From Fidelibacterota bacterium (GTDB lineage Bacteria > Fidelibacterota > Marinisomatia > Marinisomatales > UBA1611), in contig JABHKE010000023.1 of the NCBI GenBank assembly GCA_018692355.1, positions 1-57,759 on the forward strand: a stretch of DNA of 57,759 nt, in the 5' to 3' direction. Below are positions 5,418 through 30,725 of this stretch, piece after piece. Every line of letters starts with the position of its first letter. Positions within the stretch are counted from its first letter, which is position 1. A program made the translations under genes and the position numbers. A model generated the notes under the pieces. The model ran no database searches, was not told where the DNA came from, and saw only the letters and a program-made list of their open reading frames with translations.

Positions 5418-6455
5418 ATGAATATTACAAAAGCCCGACTATTGTTGGGCTTTTTAGTCTGTTTAATTGGCTGCAGTCAACAAAGAGACTTGATCCATTT
5501 TTCAGGTCTAACCATGGGAACCACTTACTCGATCAAGGCAATTCCATTAGAGAAAAACATGGATACTCAAATTTTAAAAAAAGGAATTGATTCCATTTTA
5601 TTTTCTCTGGATAAGCAAATGTCAACCTGGGACCCGAATAGTGAAATATCCCAATTCAACCTTACTCATTCGACTAAACCATACGCGATCTCGGAATCAT
5701 TTAGGACGGTGGTTAAAGCAGCTTTGGATGTATCGGAAAAGACGGATGGGTTTTTTGATATCACAGTGTTTGATCTTATGGGAATATGGGGTTTTGGCCC
5801 TGATCCTAATTCTGGGATACCGGACCAAAAACAAATTGAAACTGTCTTATCCTATACCGGGCATGAAAAAATTAGTGTTACTGAGAAAGCTATTATCAAA
5901 GAGTATCCTGAAACAAAACTGGATTTGAATGCTATCGCTAAAGGTTATGCCGTGGATGAGGTTTTCCATTTTCTCCAATCCAAGGGATTCACGGATTTTT
6001 TTGTAGAAATTGGTGGAGAAGTACAATGTTCTGGACGAAATCAGTTAAATAAATACTGGTCAATTGGCATTGAAAACCCTTCAGGCGGAAATAAGTCAAA
6101 TCAAACATTCGCTGCAATTGTTTATTCGGATGGCGGAGCGATTGCTACTTCGGGGAATTACCGTAATTTTGTTAGCATAGATGGTGAAATTCTTGGACAC
6201 ACAATCAATCCAAAAACCGGTATTCCCATCCTGACAAATGTTCTATCCGTAACTGTCCTGTCAAATTCTTGCATGGTAGCAGATGCGTGGGCAACTGCAT
6301 TAATGGTAATGGATTATGAAACGGGATTAAAAAAAGTGACAGAAAACTCGGACATAAAAGCCGTTTGGATTCTTGATAAGAAAGATGGATCAAGATGTGT
6401 TGCGACATCCGTTGGCGCGAAGATAGATGACTCTATTTACGAAATTATATCCTAA
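5418..6455 (+). CDS. apbE: FAD:protein FMN transferase (ApbE family lipoprotein)
   Basis: Lipoprotein signal with lipobox (LLGFLVCLIGC). ApbE-like sequence in the canonical position after nqrF. I prefer ATG 5418 to the track start 5382, which lies inside nqrF. Confidence 0.85.
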   Translation: MNITKARLLLGFLVCLIGCSQQRDLIHFSGLTMGTTYSIKAIPLEKNMDTQILKKGIDSILFSLDKQMSTWDPNSEISQFNLTHSTKPYAISESFRTVVKAALDVSEKTDGFFDITVFDLMGIWGFGPDPNSGIPDQKQIETVLSYTGHEKISVTEKAIIKEYPETKLDLNAIAKGYAVDEVFHFLQSKGFTDFFVEIGGEVQCSGRNQLNKYWSIGIENPSGGNKSNQTFAAIVYSDGGAIATSGNYRNFVSIDGEILGHTINPKTGIPILTNVLSVTVLSNSCMVADAWATALMVMDYETGLKKVTENSDIKAVWILDKKDGSRCVATSVGAKIDDSIYEIIS

Positions 6456-25665: not shown

Positions 25666-26520
25666 TTGAAATCAAAATTGTCACGCCACAATTTTTCTGA
25701 ATGGTGCCAGAATCCTGACCGGGAAACACTGGTTATGGGTATCATTAATGTAACGCCAGATTCTTTCAGCGATGGCGGGAAATATTTTACAAAAAATTCT
25801 GCTTTAAATCATGCCATGTCGCTGATTAAGGATGGAGCCGATATTCTGGATATTGGAGGTGAATCTTCTCGTCCAGGTGCTGCACCAATTTCTGTAAAAG
25901 ATGAATTGAATCGAATCATCCCCGTCATCAAATTGATTCGGAGGACAGATTCGGTCGTTTTAATTTCTATTGATACTACAAAATCAGTTGTAGCAAAACA
26001 GGCTGTGGAAGCTGGTGCCGATATTGTAAATGATATTAGCGGATTCTCTCTGGACAAAAATATGCCATCTGTGGTATCATCATTGGATGTGCCAGTGGTT
26101 TTAATGCACATGAAAGGAACACCCTTAACAATGCAAAAAAAGCCACACTATGATAACCTTGTGGGTGAAATCAGCTCTTTTTTTCTAAGTCAAATTAATG
26201 TTGCCAAATCTGCCGGAATCAAAACAGAAAAAATCATTTTGGATCCTGGAATTGGATTTGGAAAAACATTAGATCATAATTTTACAATTATTCAAAAATT
26301 GAATGAATTCTGTGAGTTGGGATATCCCGTGTTAATTGGCCCTAGCCGCAAAGCTTTTATAGGGTCCATGTTGGGTCTTCCATCTCATGATCGAATAGAA
26401 GGAACAGCAGCAGCTGTTTCTGCCGGTATTTTAAATGGTGCAAGAATTGTTCGGGTTCATGATGTGAAAGAAATGAAACGAGTGGTTACAATTACTGAAA
26501 AGATCAGGACTGCCGCATGA
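25666..26520 (+). CDS. folP: Dihydropteroate synthase
   Basis: Motif MGIINVTPDSFSDGG and a pterin-binding barrel. TTG start at 25666 is uncertain (alternative ATG 25735). Confidence 0.88.
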   Translation: MKSKLSRHNFSEWCQNPDRETLVMGIINVTPDSFSDGGKYFTKNSALNHAMSLIKDGADILDIGGESSRPGAAPISVKDELNRIIPVIKLIRRTDSVVLISIDTTKSVVAKQAVEAGADIVNDISGFSLDKNMPSVVSSLDVPVVLMHMKGTPLTMQKKPHYDNLVGEISSFFLSQINVAKSAGIKTEKIILDPGIGFGKTLDHNFTIIQKLNEFCELGYPVLIGPSRKAFIGSMLGLPSHDRIEGTAAAVSAGILNGARIVRVHDVKEMKRVVTITEKIRTAA

Positions 26521-27293
26521 CCATCTTCAAATTTGGATTCCTGACTTTGACTTTAATTGATGTGATTGATATCGTCCTGGTCACTTGGATCTTTATAAAA
26601 GTATACCAATATTTCAGAGAAACTCGGGCCGGACAAATGTTGATTGGATTGGTGATATTGCTCATCTCATCCTTCCTGTTCAATTCATTTGGATTGAGTG
26701 CCATGTCATGGTTAGTAAATCAATTCCAAACTGTTTGGGTAGTAGCATTTGTAATTTTATTCCAACCGGAAATCCGACGACTTTTAATCTATGTTGGACA
26801 AACACGATTTTTCCAACGCATTTTTATGATGGGAACTTCCCGTTCCTTGGAAGCGGTTGTGGAAGCTTCTTTAATTCTAGCAGAGAAAAAATGGGGTGCT
26901 TTGATTGTAATTCAGCGAGAGACGGGACTTCGCTCTTATAAAGAAGCAGGAACACCTTTAAAAGCGGAAGTTTCAACACCCTTACTCATGTCTATCTTTA
27001 ATCCAGGTTCGCCCATGCACGATGGGGCTGTCATATTACAAAATACATTATTGGAAGCTGCGGGCTGTATTTTGCCATTGACAGAAAGCTCGATGGTTTT
27101 ACCAGAGATGGGCACGCGACATCGTGCTGCATTAGGGATCACTGAAGAATCGGATGCAATTGTTGTAGTCGTTTCAGAAGAACGAGGGACAATCTCTACA
27201 GCCGAAAACGGTCGATTTACTCACTTGGATATGGATGAAATGAAATTACGTCGTTATTTAAATGAACGTTTATTTATTTCATCTGGTGATTAA
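26517..27293 (+). CDS. cdaA: Diadenylate cyclase CdaA
   Basis: Three N-terminal TM helices plus DAC-domain motifs (HDGAVIL, TRHRAALG, VVVSEERGTIS). Conserved folP-cdaA context. Confidence 0.87.
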   Translation: MTIFKFGFLTLTLIDVIDIVLVTWIFIKVYQYFRETRAGQMLIGLVILLISSFLFNSFGLSAMSWLVNQFQTVWVVAFVILFQPEIRRLLIYVGQTRFFQRIFMMGTSRSLEAVVEASLILAEKKWGALIVIQRETGLRSYKEAGTPLKAEVSTPLLMSIFNPGSPMHDGAVILQNTLLEAAGCILPLTESSMVLPEMGTRHRAALGITEESDAIVVVVSEERGTISTAENGRFTHLDMDEMKLRRYLNERLFISSGD

Positions 27294-27315
27294 AACATCA
27301 CTATCATCCTTGATC

Positions 27316-27368
27316 GTGGGTATGCGGTTTATAGCCGCATCGAGAGTTCGAATCTCTCCCTCTCCGCA
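27316..27368 (+). pseudogene. tRNA-Ser-derived 3' fragment: anticodon-stem 3' strand, long variable arm, T arm, acceptor 3' strand
   Basis: GTGGG, variable arm ATGCGG-tttatag-CCGCAT, T arm GAGAG-TTCGAAT-CTCTC, CCTCTCC plus discriminator G. No matching GGAGAGG 5' strand, D arm or anticodon loop upstream. Confidence 0.8.
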
Positions 27369-27385
27369 CTTTAATAGACGATAAA

Positions 27386-27407
27386 CCCTGCATAAGCGGG
27401 GTTTTTT
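27386..27407 (+). terminator. Rho-independent terminator-like hairpin after the tRNA fragment
   Basis: CCCTGC-ATAA-GCGGGG stem-loop followed by TTTTTT. Confidence 0.6.
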
Positions 27408-27602
27408 GCTTATAGCCTGAATTAGTCTGGATAGTGGAAAAAAGGGCTGAAATGGACTGAAACCACTGGTAATACACTGGTCATTTAGTTTCAACTAAAA
27501 AGTGGTAAGGTAGATGGCAAGCAAGGCAGGGTAGTGTCGGATAAAAAGGTTGACACGCATTCTTGTAGTATTTTTTTTAAAGGATGATGAGTAGATTAGG
27601 AG

Positions 27603-28301
27603 ATGCGTAGATATATTGTTTTACTTTTGATTAAAGGCATTGTGTGGGCACAGACTGATTTTGATAAATTAGTTTTGAAAGATGGTACTACATATTTGGG
27701 AGAATATTCAAAAATTGAAGGAGAGATAGTATATTTTAAACCTCAAAATGCGTTCACTTTCCAACCAATTTCTATTAAACAAATTCAAACACTAGAATTA
27801 AAAGATGGTCATTTTATCATTGTTCGTGGCTATGCAAAAAAAATACCTTTAGCTATTGAAGAATATCAAAAATTAAGTACTAAAGAAAAAGCAATTTATG
27901 ATGCAAAGTCCAAAAATTTGGGTAAGTTGGTTCTTTATGGGCCAACAAGTATTATTGTTTTTTTGGGTAGTATACAATTACATAAAGTTTTAATAGGGGG
28001 TGAATTTTGGGAAAGCCCTATATTTTTAGGAGGTTCTCCAGCGGCCAGTTTGACTATACCTTATTTTGTTTTAAACAGTAAAGAAAAATTTAATTTTCCT
28101 AAATCAATTTTGACTGGTTCTGAAAAAGGCATCTACAAGCAAGCTTATTCTAAAAAACTCCAGGAAAGGAAATTTAAATATGCTGCAGTTTCTACCATTG
28201 TTACTGGAGCAGTTTTAGTAGTTTCCTGGCCTGGTATTGATTGGTCTTCTTCCAGGAGTGGAGGGACAACTGGAAAAGGATTTACCGGACTTGGCCCATA
28301 A
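27603..28301 (+). CDS. Hypothetical secreted/membrane protein, module A (232 aa)
   Basis: Signal-peptide-like N-terminus (MRRYIVLLLIKGIVWA/QTD) and several hydrophobic segments in the C-terminal half. AGGAG sits immediately upstream. The N-terminal ~48 aa are near-identical to module B; the rest is unrelated. Confidence 0.6.
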   Translation: MRRYIVLLLIKGIVWAQTDFDKLVLKDGTTYLGEYSKIEGEIVYFKPQNAFTFQPISIKQIQTLELKDGHFIIVRGYAKKIPLAIEEYQKLSTKEKAIYDAKSKNLGKLVLYGPTSIIVFLGSIQLHKVLIGGEFWESPIFLGGSPAASLTIPYFVLNSKEKFNFPKSILTGSEKGIYKQAYSKKLQERKFKYAAVSTIVTGAVLVVSWPGIDWSSSRSGGTTGKGFTGLGP

Positions 28302-28314
28302 CAATAATTAGCCA

Positions 28315-28399
28315 CAGATTAGTGGGAAGATGGTTCAATTTCCGCTACAGATACACTGGTTGATTACTGGGTCCAGTTGGGAACCAGCCTGCTAAGTGG
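28315..28399 (+). repeat. 85-nt conserved module tail, copy 1 (ends in the anticodon-loop-like CTGCTAAGTGG)
   Basis: Matches 29383-29467 with about 9 substitutions and no indels. Contains ATACACTGGT and a GTGGGA...TTCC(G/A)C hairpin. Confidence 0.85.
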
Positions 28400-28448
28400 G
28401 TATGCGGTTTATAGCCGCATCGAGAGTTCGAATCTCTCCCTCTCCGCA
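28384..28448 (+). pseudogene. tRNA-Ser(GCU)-like partial gene: anticodon stem-loop through acceptor 3' end; no 5' acceptor strand or D arm
   Basis: CCAGC-CTGCTAA-GTGGG (anticodon GCT, one A-G mismatch in the stem), then the same variable arm, T arm and CCTCTCCG as at 27316. No GGAGAGG upstream. Confidence 0.7.
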
Positions 28449-28826
28449 TTTTAATAGACGATAAACCATGCATAAGCGGGGTTTTTTGCTTATAGCCTAA
28501 ATTAGTCTGATTAGTATAAAAAAGGGCTGAATTGGGCTTAAACCACTGGTAATACACTGGCCATTCAGTTTCAACTAAAAAGTGTTAGGGTAGAGGGCAA
28601 GCAAGGTGGGGTAGGGTCGGATAAAAAGGATGACACACATTCTTGTAGTATTTTTTTTAAAGGATGATGTGTAGATTAGGAGATGCATAGATATATAGTT
28701 TTACTTTTGATTACAGGCATTGTGTGGGCACAGACTGATTATGATAAATTAGTTTTGAAAGATGGTACTACATATTTGGGAGAATATATAAAAATTGAAG
28801 GTGAAATAGTATTTTTTAAACCTCTG
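28396..28826 (+). repeat. Direct repeat copy 2 (about 431 bp)
   Basis: See copy 1 at 27316-27746. Confidence 0.9.
28466..28487 (+). terminator. Terminator-like hairpin, copy 2 (weaker stem)
   Basis: CCATGC-ATAA-GCGGGG plus TTTTTT. One stem position is disrupted relative to copy 1. Confidence 0.45.
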
Positions 28827-29390
28827 GAGGGGCTTTATAAGAAAGAAGCATTCGAACCAGTTCCTGTTAAACTCATTAAGAAACTACAATTAAAAGATGG
28901 TCAAATTCTATTTGATGGTAGCAATGTGAAAACATTTGGGTCAGTATATAATGAACAAAAATTATCAGTAAAACAAGCCAAAATGCACTGGTATCAAATT
29001 TCTCCCTTTGAAATATTTTATGTGAGTATCTTAAAAAGACCAGCCAGATGGACAGTAAATAGGGGAAATGGTGGATTGATAGGAGATGAAGAATTTTTTT
29101 TAATAACCGAATCCACTCAAGAACAGATTCTCCTCAAAAATCAGCTTAAGCTTTCAAGGCAACAATTGTTTTTGAGTAGTATATCATTTTTAGTGGGTGG
29201 GTGGATGGCCCTTGCTTCACAACCAGGAAGTGTTTATGGACCTTTAGTTGTCATTATTAGTTCGGGGGTACTTGTGGATAGTAAAATCAATTACTTATAT
29301 CCAGTTATATCATTTGAATCTGCAAAAATTATTGCTGAACAATACAACAAGAACCTTTTATTGAAGAATAATCATCAAGCCCCAGATTAG
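28683..29390 (+). CDS. Hypothetical secreted/membrane protein, module B (235 aa)
   Basis: Same signal peptide and N-terminal domain as module A (MHRYIVLLLITGIVWA/QTD...). Divergent C-terminal part with hydrophobic segments. Stop TAG lies inside the conserved CAGATTAGTGGGA tail. Confidence 0.6.
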   Translation: MHRYIVLLLITGIVWAQTDYDKLVLKDGTTYLGEYIKIEGEIVFFKPLEGLYKKEAFEPVPVKLIKKLQLKDGQILFDGSNVKTFGSVYNEQKLSVKQAKMHWYQISPFEIFYVSILKRPARWTVNRGNGGLIGDEEFFLITESTQEQILLKNQLKLSRQQLFLSSISFLVGGWMALASQPGSVYGPLVVIISSGVLVDSKINYLYPVISFESAKIIAEQYNKNLLLKNNHQAPD

Positions 29391-29467
29391 TGGGATAATG
29401 GTTCAATTTCCACTACAGATACACTGGTTGATTATTAGTTATAGTCGGGAACCAGCCTGCTAAGTGG
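29383..29467 (+). repeat. 85-nt conserved module tail, copy 2, ending in CTGCTAAGTGG and then unique sequence
   Basis: Matches 28315-28399. After GTGG the similarity to the tRNA-derived block stops (taaggtggcctg...). Confidence 0.85.
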
Positions 29468-29614
29468 TAAGGTGGCCTGATTTTGTAATAAAGTTGTGAT
29501 TTTAATAACCATCACTCGTGTAATTCGGATTTAATTATTTACCCGTAGTTTATAACTTAACAATTTTCCCGATTTCCCCCTTAATTCGGGTTCATCTTCT
29601 CTGTAAATTTTCAG

Positions 29615-30725
29615 ATGGAATTATCTGATTTAAAGGAGCAATTTGCAGCAGCAGAATCCAAGGACTCCGAAATACGGAGGTATCTTTGATCTGGATTCCA
29701 GATCAAAAACATTAGTAGTGCTCCGCGAGCAATCTTCCAATCCAGATTTCTGGAATGATAATCAAGGTGCATCTAGCATCCTGAAAAAAATTTCCCGGAT
29801 CGAAAAAGAAATTGCGTTATGGTCAGACCTAACCAGGCGCCATGATGATATGGAGGTGTTATTCGAGTTTGCGGAAGAGGGCGAAACGGGTTTGGATGAA
29901 ATCCAAAATGAGCTGAATCTGTACCAGAAGATCATTGACGATGTTGAAATGAAACTTATTTTAGGCAAACCTGAAGATATTCAAAATGCCATTATGGCGA
30001 TTCACCCGGGTGCCGGTGGAACCGAGAGTCAAGATTGGGCACAAATGCTTTATCGCATGTACAAGCGATGGGCTGAGAAAGAAGATTTTAAAATTGAAAT
30101 TATAGATTTACAGCCAGGGGATGAAGCTGGTATAAAAGATGTAACATTTGAAATAAAAGGTGATTATGCTTTTGGCATGGCAAAAGCTGAAGCAGGTGTG
30201 CATCGCATGGTTCGAATTTCTCCCTTTGATTCTGCTAGCAGGCGCCACACATCATTTGCATCGGTATTTGTTTATCCCGCTGTAGAAGATGACATTGAGG
30301 TGGAAATTAATCCTACGGATCTTCGTATCGATACTTACCGTGCCAGCGGAGCAGGCGGTCAGCATATTAATAAAACAGATTCCGCCGTCCGCATTACGCA
30401 CCATCCAACAGGAATTGTTGCTCAATGCCAGAATGAGAGATCTCAGCATAAAAATAAGAGTCAAGCTATGAAGATTCTGAAAGCTAGGATTTATCAAGTA
30501 GAGCTGGAAAAAGAGAAAGAGAAAAATAAGGATCTGGAAGACCAAAAAATGGATATTGGGTGGGGAAGTCAGATCCGATCCTATGTTTTTCATCCTTATC
30601 AAATGGTAAAAGACCACCGAACCAAAGAAGAAAATGGAAATACCCAATTCGTTATGGATGGTGGTTTAACGCCATTTATTAAAGCATTTTTATTAAGTAC
30701 AATTGGTACTAAAAATAAGGCGTAA
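29615..30725 (+). CDS. prfB: Peptide chain release factor 2, with programmed +1 ribosomal frameshift
   Basis: ATG 29615 opens a 24-codon frame ending ...CGG AGG TAT CTT TGA T (29675-29690). A +1 shift at CTT-T (skip T 29687) joins the 29688-30725 frame. SPF (RISPFDS) and GGQ (SGAGGQHINK) motifs are present, and an SD-like GGAGG lies 3 nt upstream of the CTT. Confidence 0.93.

Follow-up and report, generated by a model that had tools for sequence, protein, structure and literature searches.

How does a pair of genes with no recombination enzyme of its own come to stand between two essential-gene neighbours in some members of a species and not in others? This question is raised by the interval between cdaA and prfB in a genome of the Fidelibacterota (SAR406, Marinimicrobia), which we studied in a stretch of 57,759 nucleotides (nt) of contig JABHKE010000023.1 (assembly GCA_018692355.1), called the window below. 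The array region (27294-29614) contains two head-to-tail units, 27316-28395 and 28396-29467, each with one open reading frame (ORF1 and ORF2, respectively; all array features described here lie on the forward strand). The original prediction, made from the letters of the window, had recognised two tandem modules, each composed of a segment derived from a transfer RNA (tRNA) for serine, a terminator, a leader, an ORF and a tail, and had offered two origins for them, namely the tandem accretion of small non-autonomous integrative cassettes or an unusual local duplication maintained by gene conversion. The modules were confirmed in all their parts, and an empty site, a presence/absence polymorphism and a large set of related loci support the former origin. 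Specifically, we consider it probable that two integrase-less, tRNA-targeting cassettes were inserted at an ectopic, non-tRNA site by an integrase acting in trans.

Presence and absence of the array within one species

Deletion of everything between the two GTGG copies that bound the array had been predicted to leave an empty site reading ccttgatcGTGGtaaggtggcc, and such a site was found, almost letter for letter, in conspecific contigs, which read ...catccttgatcGTGGtaaggt... with a single GTGG and share ~98.6-98.9% nucleotide identity with the window over 2.3 kb upstream. Among the closer relatives, which were drawn from the 90%-identity CdaA cluster, both alleles occur at the smallest protein distance: where CdaA differs from that of the window by one residue, two contigs (L086 and L094; 99.8-99.9% nucleotide identity to the window over the same 2.3 kb) carry the array and eight (L087-L093 and L095; 98.6-98.9%) have the empty site. 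The cdaA-prfB spacer is 174 nt long in empty sites (as measured in this one-residue set) versus 2321 nt in carriers. In empty sites whose CdaA differs by 1-4 residues the spacer reads ...catccttgatcGTGGta(a/t)(g/t)gt(c/g)gcctgatt..., again with one GTGG; the members of this group with four differing residues (L080-L085) lack the array and read aacctcacgatcatccttgatcGTGGtaaggtcgcctgattctgtcataaagttgtgattttaataaccatcactcgtg..., that is, the left flank of the window joined to its right flank through one GTGG. Contigs L072-L079 (nine residues different) are also without the array, and more distant relatives (CdaA 86-93% identical) have a spacer of 43-52 nt with neither tRNA nor array. A tRNA gene at the cdaA-prfB spacer was found neither in the window nor in any relative locus examined. 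All 23 identical-CdaA contigs that were read carry both genes, as do all 24 contigs read that encode the exact ORF2 protein, which was seen only at the cdaA-prfB locus. The array thus represents a gain of ~2.15 kb within one species, in which no target sequence was lost and only GTGG is repeated. A larger target duplication (AAC(C)ATCACT on both flanks) was considered as well and rejected because both copies are already present in the empty sites.

The boundaries of the array are exact, as had been proposed: homology to the array in >25 independent loci begins at precisely 27316 and ends at precisely 29467 (blastn). Further, the array was seen in ~47 contigs from many samples and assemblers and is, therefore, not an assembly artefact; carriers are present, for example, in ERZ23491215/SAMN08283974 and in the JGI sets 3300025770, 3300028706 and 3300025727. 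The left GTGG (27316-27319), which would be the crossover microhomology, is thus also the first base run of the cassette-family homology, and occurs once in empty sites and twice in carriers. To its left, the host spacer at 27294-27315 would constitute the left half of a pseudo-attachment site (attB' left arm aacatcactatcatccttgatc) and abuts GTGGtaaggt in the empty-site contigs L080-L085, L087-L093 and L095. To the right of the array, the host spacer at 29468-29614 would be the other half of the pseudo-attachment (att) site; it runs up to the prfB start and is colinear with the empty-site contigs save for a few single-nucleotide polymorphisms. A degraded third cassette at this right junction was also considered, given a 12-nt match (AAGTGGTAAGGT) to the leader of cassette 1, and was dismissed: 25 of 200 shuffles score equally and the sequence is the host spacer of the empty sites.

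Two further observations concern the same insertion point in a sister lineage (CdaA nine residues different). In L073 (positions 5778-5900; HAWL17-1_SAMN08283974 scaffold_600), a run of N begins exactly after ...catccttgat, i.e., at the point that corresponds to window position 27316, and could hide another variable insert at the cdaA-prfB site; the same sample also holds the carrier contig L096. In L072 and L074-L079 (5778-5950), the spacer is colinear with the window up to ...ccttgatTGTGG and then continues as unrelated sequence, gtgtttgcaaaaaaagatcctgg..., until ~40 nt before prfB. The stretch GTGGGTGTTTGC in these contigs faintly resembles the start of the tRNA part. Since the colinearity of these contigs ends there, the GTGG point is a breakpoint in a second lineage, too.

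The tRNA copy, the tail and the cassette family

What, then, are the two units made of? The repeat search returned a direct repeat of 300 nt (27316-27615 and 28396-28695; 93% identity, spacing 1080) and a second one of 90 nt (28310-28399 and 29378-29467; 89% identity, spacing 1068), and a recount of the 287-nt noncoding block, compared between the two copies, gave 21 substitutions and no indels; the spacings and the substitution count are those first read. In pairwise alignment, the similarity of unit 1 and unit 2 runs into the first ~47 codons of the ORFs and then collapses; hence, the conserved block (tail, tRNA part, terminator, leader and ORF N-terminus) spans ~520 nt, i.e., the noncoding repeat first described is real but the block is longer than had been thought, and only the C-terminal two thirds of each ORF are specific to a unit.

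Two adjacent paralogues whose upstream blocks are 93% identical could also be read as a plain local tandem duplication whose noncoding blocks were kept alike by gene conversion. However, a search for the noncoding blocks and the tail elsewhere, which had been recommended at the outset, found dozens of further loci and genomes that have them; the two ORFs share no similarity in their C-terminal halves; the array is absent from conspecifics with a clean empty site; and the blocks have the makeup of att sites in which the tRNA copy matches the real gene at every position. The family loci and the conspecific empty sites refute the duplication, to which we give next to no credence. Likewise, the pattern that an ancient duplication would have left, with both genes as stable orthologues in all relatives, the blocks nowhere else and no presence/absence variation, is contradicted by the blocks in other genomes and by the polymorphism described above.

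The tRNA parts of the two cassettes (copy 1, 27316-27368; copy 2, 28396-28448) are 53 nt long, show 0/53 differences from each other, and are identical to the 3' end of the genuine 91-nt tRNA-Ser(GCU) gene (ARAGORN) of contigs L043, L045, L059 and L070, so that the suspected derivation from tRNA-Ser proved to be correct. These are the four among 29 loci recovered by a scan of metagenomes for the segment in which it forms the 3' part of a genuine tRNA. The genuine gene reads GGAGAGGTGGCCGAGTGGCTGAAGGCGCCCGC-CTGCTAA-GTGGGTATGCGG..., and the window copies, which lack its 5' half, start at the 3' strand of the anticodon stem (GTGGG), cover the variable arm and the T arm, and end at the 3' strand of the acceptor stem. 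No complete tRNA was found in the window by ARAGORN; Rfam returned an antisense match to a plastid family that is itself antisense to trnS and a sub-threshold match to the T arm of transfer-messenger RNA (tmRNA). The 21 substitutions of the noncoding block all fall outside the tRNA part (0/53 in the tRNA part vs. 21/234 in the remaining noncoding nucleotides; Fisher p = 0.018), and such perfect preservation is expected, through selection, if the cassettes must rebuild a working tRNA.

The other conserved end of each unit is the tail, whose role had been overlooked originally, together with the perfection of the tRNA copy and the inclusion of the ORF N-termini in the conserved block: the tail appears to be the second arm of an att site and carries the anticodon loop. 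Tail 1 (28310-28395), a putative P arm, comprises a hairpin remnant of the ORF terminator, the tail core TCAATTTCCGCTACAGATACACTGGT (28335-28360), a 28-nt spacer and CCAGC-CTGCTAA (28384-28395), the last reproducing the anticodon loop exactly and, before it, the 5' side of the anticodon stem imperfectly. Since the tail ends in this way, the junction of tail 1 with tRNA part 2 mimics a tRNA from the anticodon arm on, the 5' strand of the acceptor stem being absent. We considered whether tail and tRNA part could form a functional tRNA, tmRNA or other structured RNA and rejected the idea (nothing was found by ARAGORN, the fold z-score is -1.9, and there is neither a 5' strand of the acceptor stem nor a proper D arm). 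Tail 1 and tRNA part 2 would together form a complete attP-like site with P arm, core and P' arm. Tail 2 (29378-29467; tail core 29403-29428, CTGCTAA 29457-29463, right GTGG 29464-29467) forms an attR-like junction with the host. Lined up at the core, the real tRNA (...ggcgcccgcCTGCTAAGTGGGtatgcgg), the integrase-proximal site of L046 (...gggaaatcaaCTGCTAAGTGGGtatgcgg), the cassette junction (...gggaaccagcCTGCTAAGTGGGtatgcgg), the left array end (...catccttgatcGTGGGtatgcgg), the right array end (...gggaaccagcCTGCTAAGTGGtaaggtggcc) and the empty site of L080 (...catccttgatcGTGGtaaggtcgcc) place the attL-, attP- and attR-like junctions all at the core position.

Each cassette continues from its tRNA part in the same order. 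In cassette 1 (27316-28395, 1080 nt, as delimited by the repeats, the alignment and the family homology), the tRNA part is followed by an intrinsic terminator hairpin with T-tract (27383-27404), which had been noted originally, and a conserved TTTTTTGCTTATAGCC motif (27383-27417 for hairpin, T-tract and motif together) that occurs also after the genuine tRNA-Ser and after most cassette genes of related arrays. Next come the putative P' arm, a direct repeat CACTGGT-aata-CACTGGT (27464-27481) that stands at a fixed distance from the core across loci, and a leader (27482-27602) with a promoter-like region (TTGACAcgcattcTTGTAGtattttttttaaagg...gtagatt) and a ribosome-binding site, which is conserved with other cassette leaders and with the TTGTAG-N10-TTGTAGATTT junction motif of L001 and is a putative promoter. 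ORF1 (27603-28301; 232 residues) is the cargo, with a signal peptide, a small beta-barrel N-terminal domain and a C-terminal part predicted to be helical or transmembrane. Cassette 2 (28396-29467, 1072 nt including the right GTGG, delimited by the same evidence) has its P' arm (CACTGGTAATACACTGGC) at 28544-28561 and ORF2 (235 residues) at 28683-29390, the first ~100 residues of which are 57% identical to ORF1 while the C-terminal part is unrelated.

The window modules are members of a large family of cargo cassettes in the Marinimicrobia, bounded by att sites. In a set of species-representative genomes, 15 stretches contain the tail core TCAATTTCCRCTACAGATACACTGGT, nearly all of them from metagenome-assembled genomes (MAGs) or single-amplified genomes of Candidatus (Neo)marinimicrobiota or unclassified marine MAGs. 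In most of the 15, the tail core leads into the anticodon arm and the 3' part of tRNA-Pro(UGG), ...gagCCTGCTTTGGGAGCAGGaggtcgggagttcgaatctctccaccccgac, and in L007 into the Ser version. L007 (JAAZXG010000044.1; 2.7 kb), which bears this Ser-type cassette end, is binned in a MAG labelled 'Methanobacteriota archaeon', almost certainly a binning error with a Marinimicrobia fragment. Contigs L001, L013 and L017 are same-strand gene arrays punctuated by tail, tRNA fragment, terminator and arm repeat. Further, related contigs have a genuine tRNA-Ser(GCU) with the identical 3' part and, behind it, the terminator, the TATAGCC motif, the CACTGGT arm and cassettes. Cassettes of the family normally stack head to tail behind a genuine tRNA-Ser(GCU) or tRNA-Pro(UGG), beside a tyrosine integrase of 292 residues. 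ORF1-family genes lie directly behind genuine tRNA-Ser in L052 and L068, and the window block matches the genuine tRNA-Ser locus L045 at 94% identity up to and including the leader and the start of the ORF; hence, a tRNA-Ser(GCU) island is the normal home of such cassettes. Whole-length homologues of cassette 1, with 80-83% nucleotide identity, were found in L053, L058, L061, L063, L066 and L068.

The geometry of the family, measured over 45 independent loci, is nearly invariant at the att end and highly variable in the cargo. The tail core and the tRNA core are 28 nt apart in 19/20 Ser-type and 32 nt apart in 13/13 Pro-type sites, and the distance from the core to CACTGGT-aata-CACTGGT is 155 nt in 13/15 Ser-type and 140 nt in 7/7 Pro-type sites. 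Successive cores are separated by 1028, 1095, 1301, 2108, 2325, 2919, 3981 and 5421 nt, and the ~1080-nt units of the window are at the small end of this size continuum. In 33 cassettes, the genes directly upstream of the tail represent 17 families with no relation to one another, among which that of ORF1 is the commonest (n=13).

Some loci deviate from this layout or extend it. In L001 (2200-13200), L006, L011-L013 and L017, nearly every gene is followed by the hairpin CCCCACATTCGTGGGG, then TTTTTTGTTTATAGCC and CACACATTGTAGGGTAATTATTTGTAGATTT (TTGTAG-N10-TTGTAG), which appears to be a portable joint of terminator and promoter and may be the point at which cassettes exchange their cargo genes. 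A tRNA core is missing within 60 nt of 9/42 tails (e.g., L009:377-420, L011:2329-2370, L016:2101-2140, L020:783-820, L006:3202 and L068:1859). Three of these loci (L009, L011 and L016) show a direct fusion of the tail core with ...ACACTGGTcattt, the sequence in which the P' arm ends, which looks like a deletion between the tail ACACTGGT and the second CACTGGT of the P' arm with loss of the tRNA part and the terminator.

As for the cargo, ORF1 and ORF2 are predicted to represent a family of secreted or membrane proteins with >1,300 relatives. BLASTP aligns residues 1-100 of the two proteins only (57% identity), a region that holds the signal peptide and, over ~50 residues, a domain in which the motif L-x-L-K-D-G is repeated. 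The relatives of ORF1 in the databases (1392) come from marine metagenomes (ENA, JGI and Tara), mostly on ~1-kb contigs, whose size probably reflects assembly breaks at the conserved att blocks. The profile searches suggested originally returned no curated family for either ORF (Pfam, NCBIfam, PHROG and PADLOC), and structure prediction added little: the AlphaFold model of ORF1 is poor (predicted local distance difference test, pLDDT, of 52) save for the beta-barrel at residues 20-75 (pLDDT ~82), the unit-specific C-terminal parts are predicted to be helical and probably membrane-spanning (pLDDT < 50), and Foldseek found only insignificant Sm/Hfq-like barrels (E >= 0.018). Other cassettes of the family encode proteins sorted by the type IX secretion system, lipoprotein-like genes, a guanylate cyclase, a methyltransferase and small regulators, a mix typical of flexible gene pools that largely concern the cell envelope; the benefit of the cargo is, thus, probably cell-envelope variation.

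The neighbours of the array in the window are ftsH, folP, cdaA, prfB, lysS and lolC/E. The cdaA gene spans 26517-27293 (matches to PF02457 and PF19293), and prfB starts at about 29615 (PCRF and RF-1 matches). At 29615-29700, prfB has the classical programmed +1 frameshift site cggaggtatCTTTGAtc, a Shine-Dalgarno-like element followed by CUU UGA C, because of which the ORF is listed from 29643 in another frame. Programmed frameshifting of prfB is known biology and unrelated to the array. Finally, the left flank together with the first array bases (ATTAAAACATCACTATCATCCTTGATCGTGGGTATGC, 27288-27325) aligns with ATTAAAAGATGGTCATTTTATCATTGTTCGTGGCTATGC inside ORF1 (27796-27835); 0/200 shuffles score as well, and the match may be chance or a hint of recurring CGTGG(G/C)TATGC-like sequences.

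Candidate integrase and proposed route of insertion

If the cassettes carry no enzyme, which one could have moved them? L046 and L071 have, on the strand opposite to the cassettes, a gene for a 292-residue tyrosine recombinase that starts ~70 nt away from a Ser core with no tail in between, and the DNA between integrase and core contains ATGCTAC-ccat-ATGCTAC 29 nt from the core. The family was assigned through PF00589 (the L019 homologue) and phrog_1 (E = 5e-33), with sub-threshold scores to the Xer/IntI models of NCBIfam, and the catalytic residues R, HxxR and H...Y are visible (...TGARSGE..., ...HDLRRSF... and ...LLGHGSVRTTEKHY...). The tail pair CACTAC-agat-ACACTGG has the same distance to the core as the ATGCTAC pair beside the integrase gene in L046 and L071, and GGGAA stands directly before the core in both the tail and the integrase-proximal DNA. 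In L067, ATGCTACAGATACACTGGT, which is essentially the tail core, lies immediately upstream of the integrase start. Because of this adjacency and the matching geometry, we read the tail as an integrase-proximal P arm that was kept after loss of the integrase.

Integrases of this family are present in the related elements L046, L071, L067, L019 and L042. Beside the integrase of L019 (4262-4345) lies a tRNA-Asp(GTC) lacking only its 5' acceptor strand, and beside that of L042 (10465-10520) the 3' part of a tRNA-Arg(CCG) with GGGACA(C) direct repeats on both sides; since the Asp and Arg fragments adjoin integrases, the family has at least four tRNA specificities and three types of arm repeat (CACTGGT, GGACACA and ATGCTAC), the second of which is used by some Pro and Arg elements. 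The database relatives (P0241-P0343) of the C-terminus of the Pro-array integrase of L017 (1-330) are, all 103 of them, only 62-189 residues long, and the integrase gene is split by frameshifts in the two long-read contigs inspected (L041:9682-10438 and L042:9330-10552). Either the Pro-type integrases are mostly pseudogenes or the assemblies carry errors.

Under the model that we favor, each cassette would be a mobile unit without an enzyme that consists of an attP-like site, a P' arm with two CACTGGT repeats, a promoter-like leader and one cargo gene. The att core would mimic the anticodon loop and 3' stem, and the tRNA copy with its terminator would rebuild the tRNA upon integration at a real gene. 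A two-cassette circle would have arisen by recombination between two cores of a tRNA-Ser array (two single-cassette circles would give the same product), and its junction would join tail 2 to tRNA part 1 (29440-29467 and 27320-27350) as ...ccagcctgctaaGTGGgtatgcgg. An integrase supplied in trans, most likely in view of the absence of an integrase from the window, would then have recombined one core with the cdaA-prfB pseudo-att site (catccttgatc-GTGG-taaggt; pseudo-attB catccttgatcGTGGtaaggtggcc), which has GTGG and an upstream CA.CCT in common with attP. The crossover would have fallen within GTGG or right next to it, directly 3' to the mimic of the anticodon loop, and would have yielded attL (host, GTGG and tRNA part), the internal complete attP-like site and attR (tail, CTGCTAA-GTGG and host), the insertion having since been inherited stably in one sub-lineage.

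Several observations weigh against this model. The identity shared by attP and the pseudo-site amounts to 4 bp (plus the upstream CA.CCT), which is weak for a tyrosine recombinase. As originally stated, there is no integrase in or beside the array: tblastn with the family integrase gave no match with E < 2 in the 57.8-kb window. Most integrase relatives beside Pro-type arrays are truncated or frameshifted, and the arm of the Ser-type integrase (ATGCTAC x2) differs from that of the tail (CACTAC/ACACTGG), so that the cognate enzyme of tail-type cassettes is only a candidate. Although alignment with relatives revealed the expected empty site, it did not reveal the differing module numbers that had been thought possible; carriers always have both modules, and no contig with one or three cassettes was seen among the ~47. 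No circular junction was seen among the carrier contigs, either. We had considered copy-number variation and circular permutation and rejected both, given that no such carrier contig was seen and that the ~1-kb metagenome contigs are fragments broken at repeats rather than overlapping circles. Lastly, IMG/VR viral contigs contain no exact match to the tail core or the Ser segment, on which grounds a phage origin of the array was also discarded.

The 4-bp junction identity, the lack of an integrase in the window and the stability of the array without copy-number variation would fit an integrase-independent insertion, in which a two-cassette circle or fragment (excised from a tRNA-Ser island through homologous recombination, or taken up from vesicles or as free DNA) was joined by microhomology-mediated illegitimate recombination at GTGG. 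However, a random break in a 2.15-kb circle would come to lie only a few bases from the att core with a chance of ~0.5%, while both junctions here lie exactly at the core, after the anticodon-loop mimic, and there is no target deletion or duplication beyond GTGG. Solitary tails that end arrays elsewhere stop at the same place (L008 at ...ctaagtg, L010 at ...ctaa), and in the integrase-bearing elements, too, the tRNA identity of the integrase-proximal sites begins in this region (CTGCTAA). The position of both ends at the core and the unaltered tRNA copy favor a role of an integrase over random joining, which we regard as unlikely.

Alternatively, a single larger element with its own integrase might have integrated at this site, and two remnants might be what is left of it after loss of the integrase and further genes. 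Islands of this kind do commonly contain degenerate integrases and partial tRNAs (10.1101/2020.12.28.424599), but the 2.15 kb contain no remnant of an integrase or any other gene, both units are intact and typical of the family in architecture, and the same tail recurs, end points included, on 42 cassettes of unrelated loci and with 17 families of cargo. Given this recurrence, tail-type cassettes spread as such and did not arise by independent deletions, and decay in situ seems very improbable. Hence, we favor insertion of the two cassettes in trans.

Significance and relation to known systems

In the dark ocean, SAR406/Marinimicrobia rank with the most abundant bacteria that have not been cultured, and hardly anything is known of the route by which they acquire flexible genes. 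The cdaA-prfB locus provides a clean natural experiment in this respect, with an enzyme-less cassette pair inserted to the nucleotide and filled and empty alleles in one species. It points to a cassette-level exchange system docked on perfect tRNA halves, with which the idea of tRNA-anchored islands as the work of mobile elements would come to cover another phylum and far smaller units. Such cassettes would also explain why assemblies around the large hypothetical secreted-protein family of ORF1 shatter into ~1-kb contigs, and the defined att sequences together with the integrase candidate are potential genetic tools.

How do these cassettes compare with described elements? The original view that no described class matches was too strong, since the array resembles a miniature, integrase-less version of a tRNA-targeting tyrosine-integrase island, with parallels in tycheposons, cis-mobilizable elements (CIMEs) and integrons. 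Tyrosine integrases recombine the attP of an element with a tRNA gene, whereby the element copy restores the gene and the displaced fragment marks the far end (PMC4383910), and repeated integration leads to tandem elements split by partial tRNAs, with older ones pushed inward (10.1101/2020.12.28.424599). Classical tRNA/tmRNA islands, as catalogued by Islander and as known from the Dehalococcoides ssrA islands, carry a 3' copy of the target tRNA and boundary fragments, and tandem islands are known (PMC4383910, PMC3146451). The window segments share the tRNA 3' copy identical to the real gene, the boundary fragments and the tandem order. However, they are not integrated in a tRNA or tmRNA gene with regeneration of an intact gene, as their sister cassettes at the canonical locus are, and tblastn of the window found no tyrosine integrase of their own. 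The units are also 1 kb long as opposed to 5-100 kb, have no integrase per unit, would use an anticodon-loop crossover with a shared tail, and stand at an ectopic site.

The tycheposons of Prochlorococcus are similar in several respects, namely a streamlined marine host, tyrosine recombinases that insert into tRNA genes, head-to-tail elements, cargo for niche or surface functions, and islands with degenerate integrases and scattered tRNA snippets. In the window, partial tRNA copies flank and separate the units, but the locus, unlike that of the sister cassettes, is not tRNA-proximal. Tycheposons, however, are defined by the integrase that they carry, have a replication module in most cases, and measure several kb or more, whereas the cassettes, at 1.07 kb with one gene, contain neither the recombinase nor the replication module and, therefore, fall outside the tycheposon definition. 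A dedicated and conserved P-arm tail, a different phylum and a non-tRNA insertion site further set them apart. The main text of the tycheposon preprint does not mention Marinimicrobia or SAR406 (10.1101/2020.12.28.424599). More generally, in the limited set of literature that we searched in full text we found no description of the 1-kb single-gene size, a tail shared by at least 17 cargos and two tRNA specificities, the occurrence in Marinimicrobia or the ectopic insertion.

CIMEs, for which ICESt1/3 of Streptococcus thermophilus are the model, are reportedly att-bounded, lack genes for integration and transfer, accrete site-specifically in tandem and rely on an integrase in trans; they are said to have arisen by decay, to measure several kb and to occupy one site in a protein gene or tRNA gene of Firmicutes. 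The array is likewise att-bounded, has two cargo genes as its only ORFs and no recombination or transfer genes, and is present or absent at a precise site between close relatives (CdaA at most one residue different); excision and integration of units of this type would be driven by a trans-acting integrase. In contrast to what is reported of CIMEs, the units here are proliferating, uniform mini-cassettes with interchangeable cargo and at least two tRNA specificities.

The stacked cassettes also resemble an integron, by analogy of layout only. Like integron cassettes, they are ~1 kb long, comprise one ORF and one site in one orientation, and would be mobilised in trans by a divergently oriented tyrosine recombinase: single-ORF units in one orientation lie beside a divergent integrase in L046 and L071 (integrase on the minus strand, then the core, then cassettes on the plus strand) and also in L013, L017, L057, L063 and L069. 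Integrons, too, occasionally insert at short secondary sites. Differences are that the core is a tRNA mimic with arm repeats and not an attC hairpin, that each cassette has its own promoter-like leader and terminator, and that the arrays are anchored at tRNA genes and not at attI. Indeed, the integrase scores 30.5 and 23.2 bits with the integron integrase models against cut-offs of 265 and 435, and the inter-ORF block holds no inverted repeats other than the terminator and tRNA arms (fold z-score as above). Given scores this far below the IntI cut-offs and the lack of an attC-type hairpin, membership among the integrons was rejected. It is nonetheless conceivable, and we put it forward tentatively, that Marinimicrobia have independently evolved an integron-like cassette system, with ~1-kb single-gene units that each bring a complete tRNA-mimicking attP, a promoter and a terminator of their own, a small tyrosine recombinase in trans, arrays at tRNA-Ser(GCU) and tRNA-Pro(UGG), and occasional use of 4-bp pseudo-sites. 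If so, cassettes rather than whole integrase-bearing elements would be the unit of gene flow in this abundant deep-ocean phylum, and the system would stand conceptually between tycheposons and integrons. In functional terms, the array is a tandem accretion of non-autonomous integrative units, to which tycheposon islands, CIMEs and integron cassettes are the closest known counterparts.

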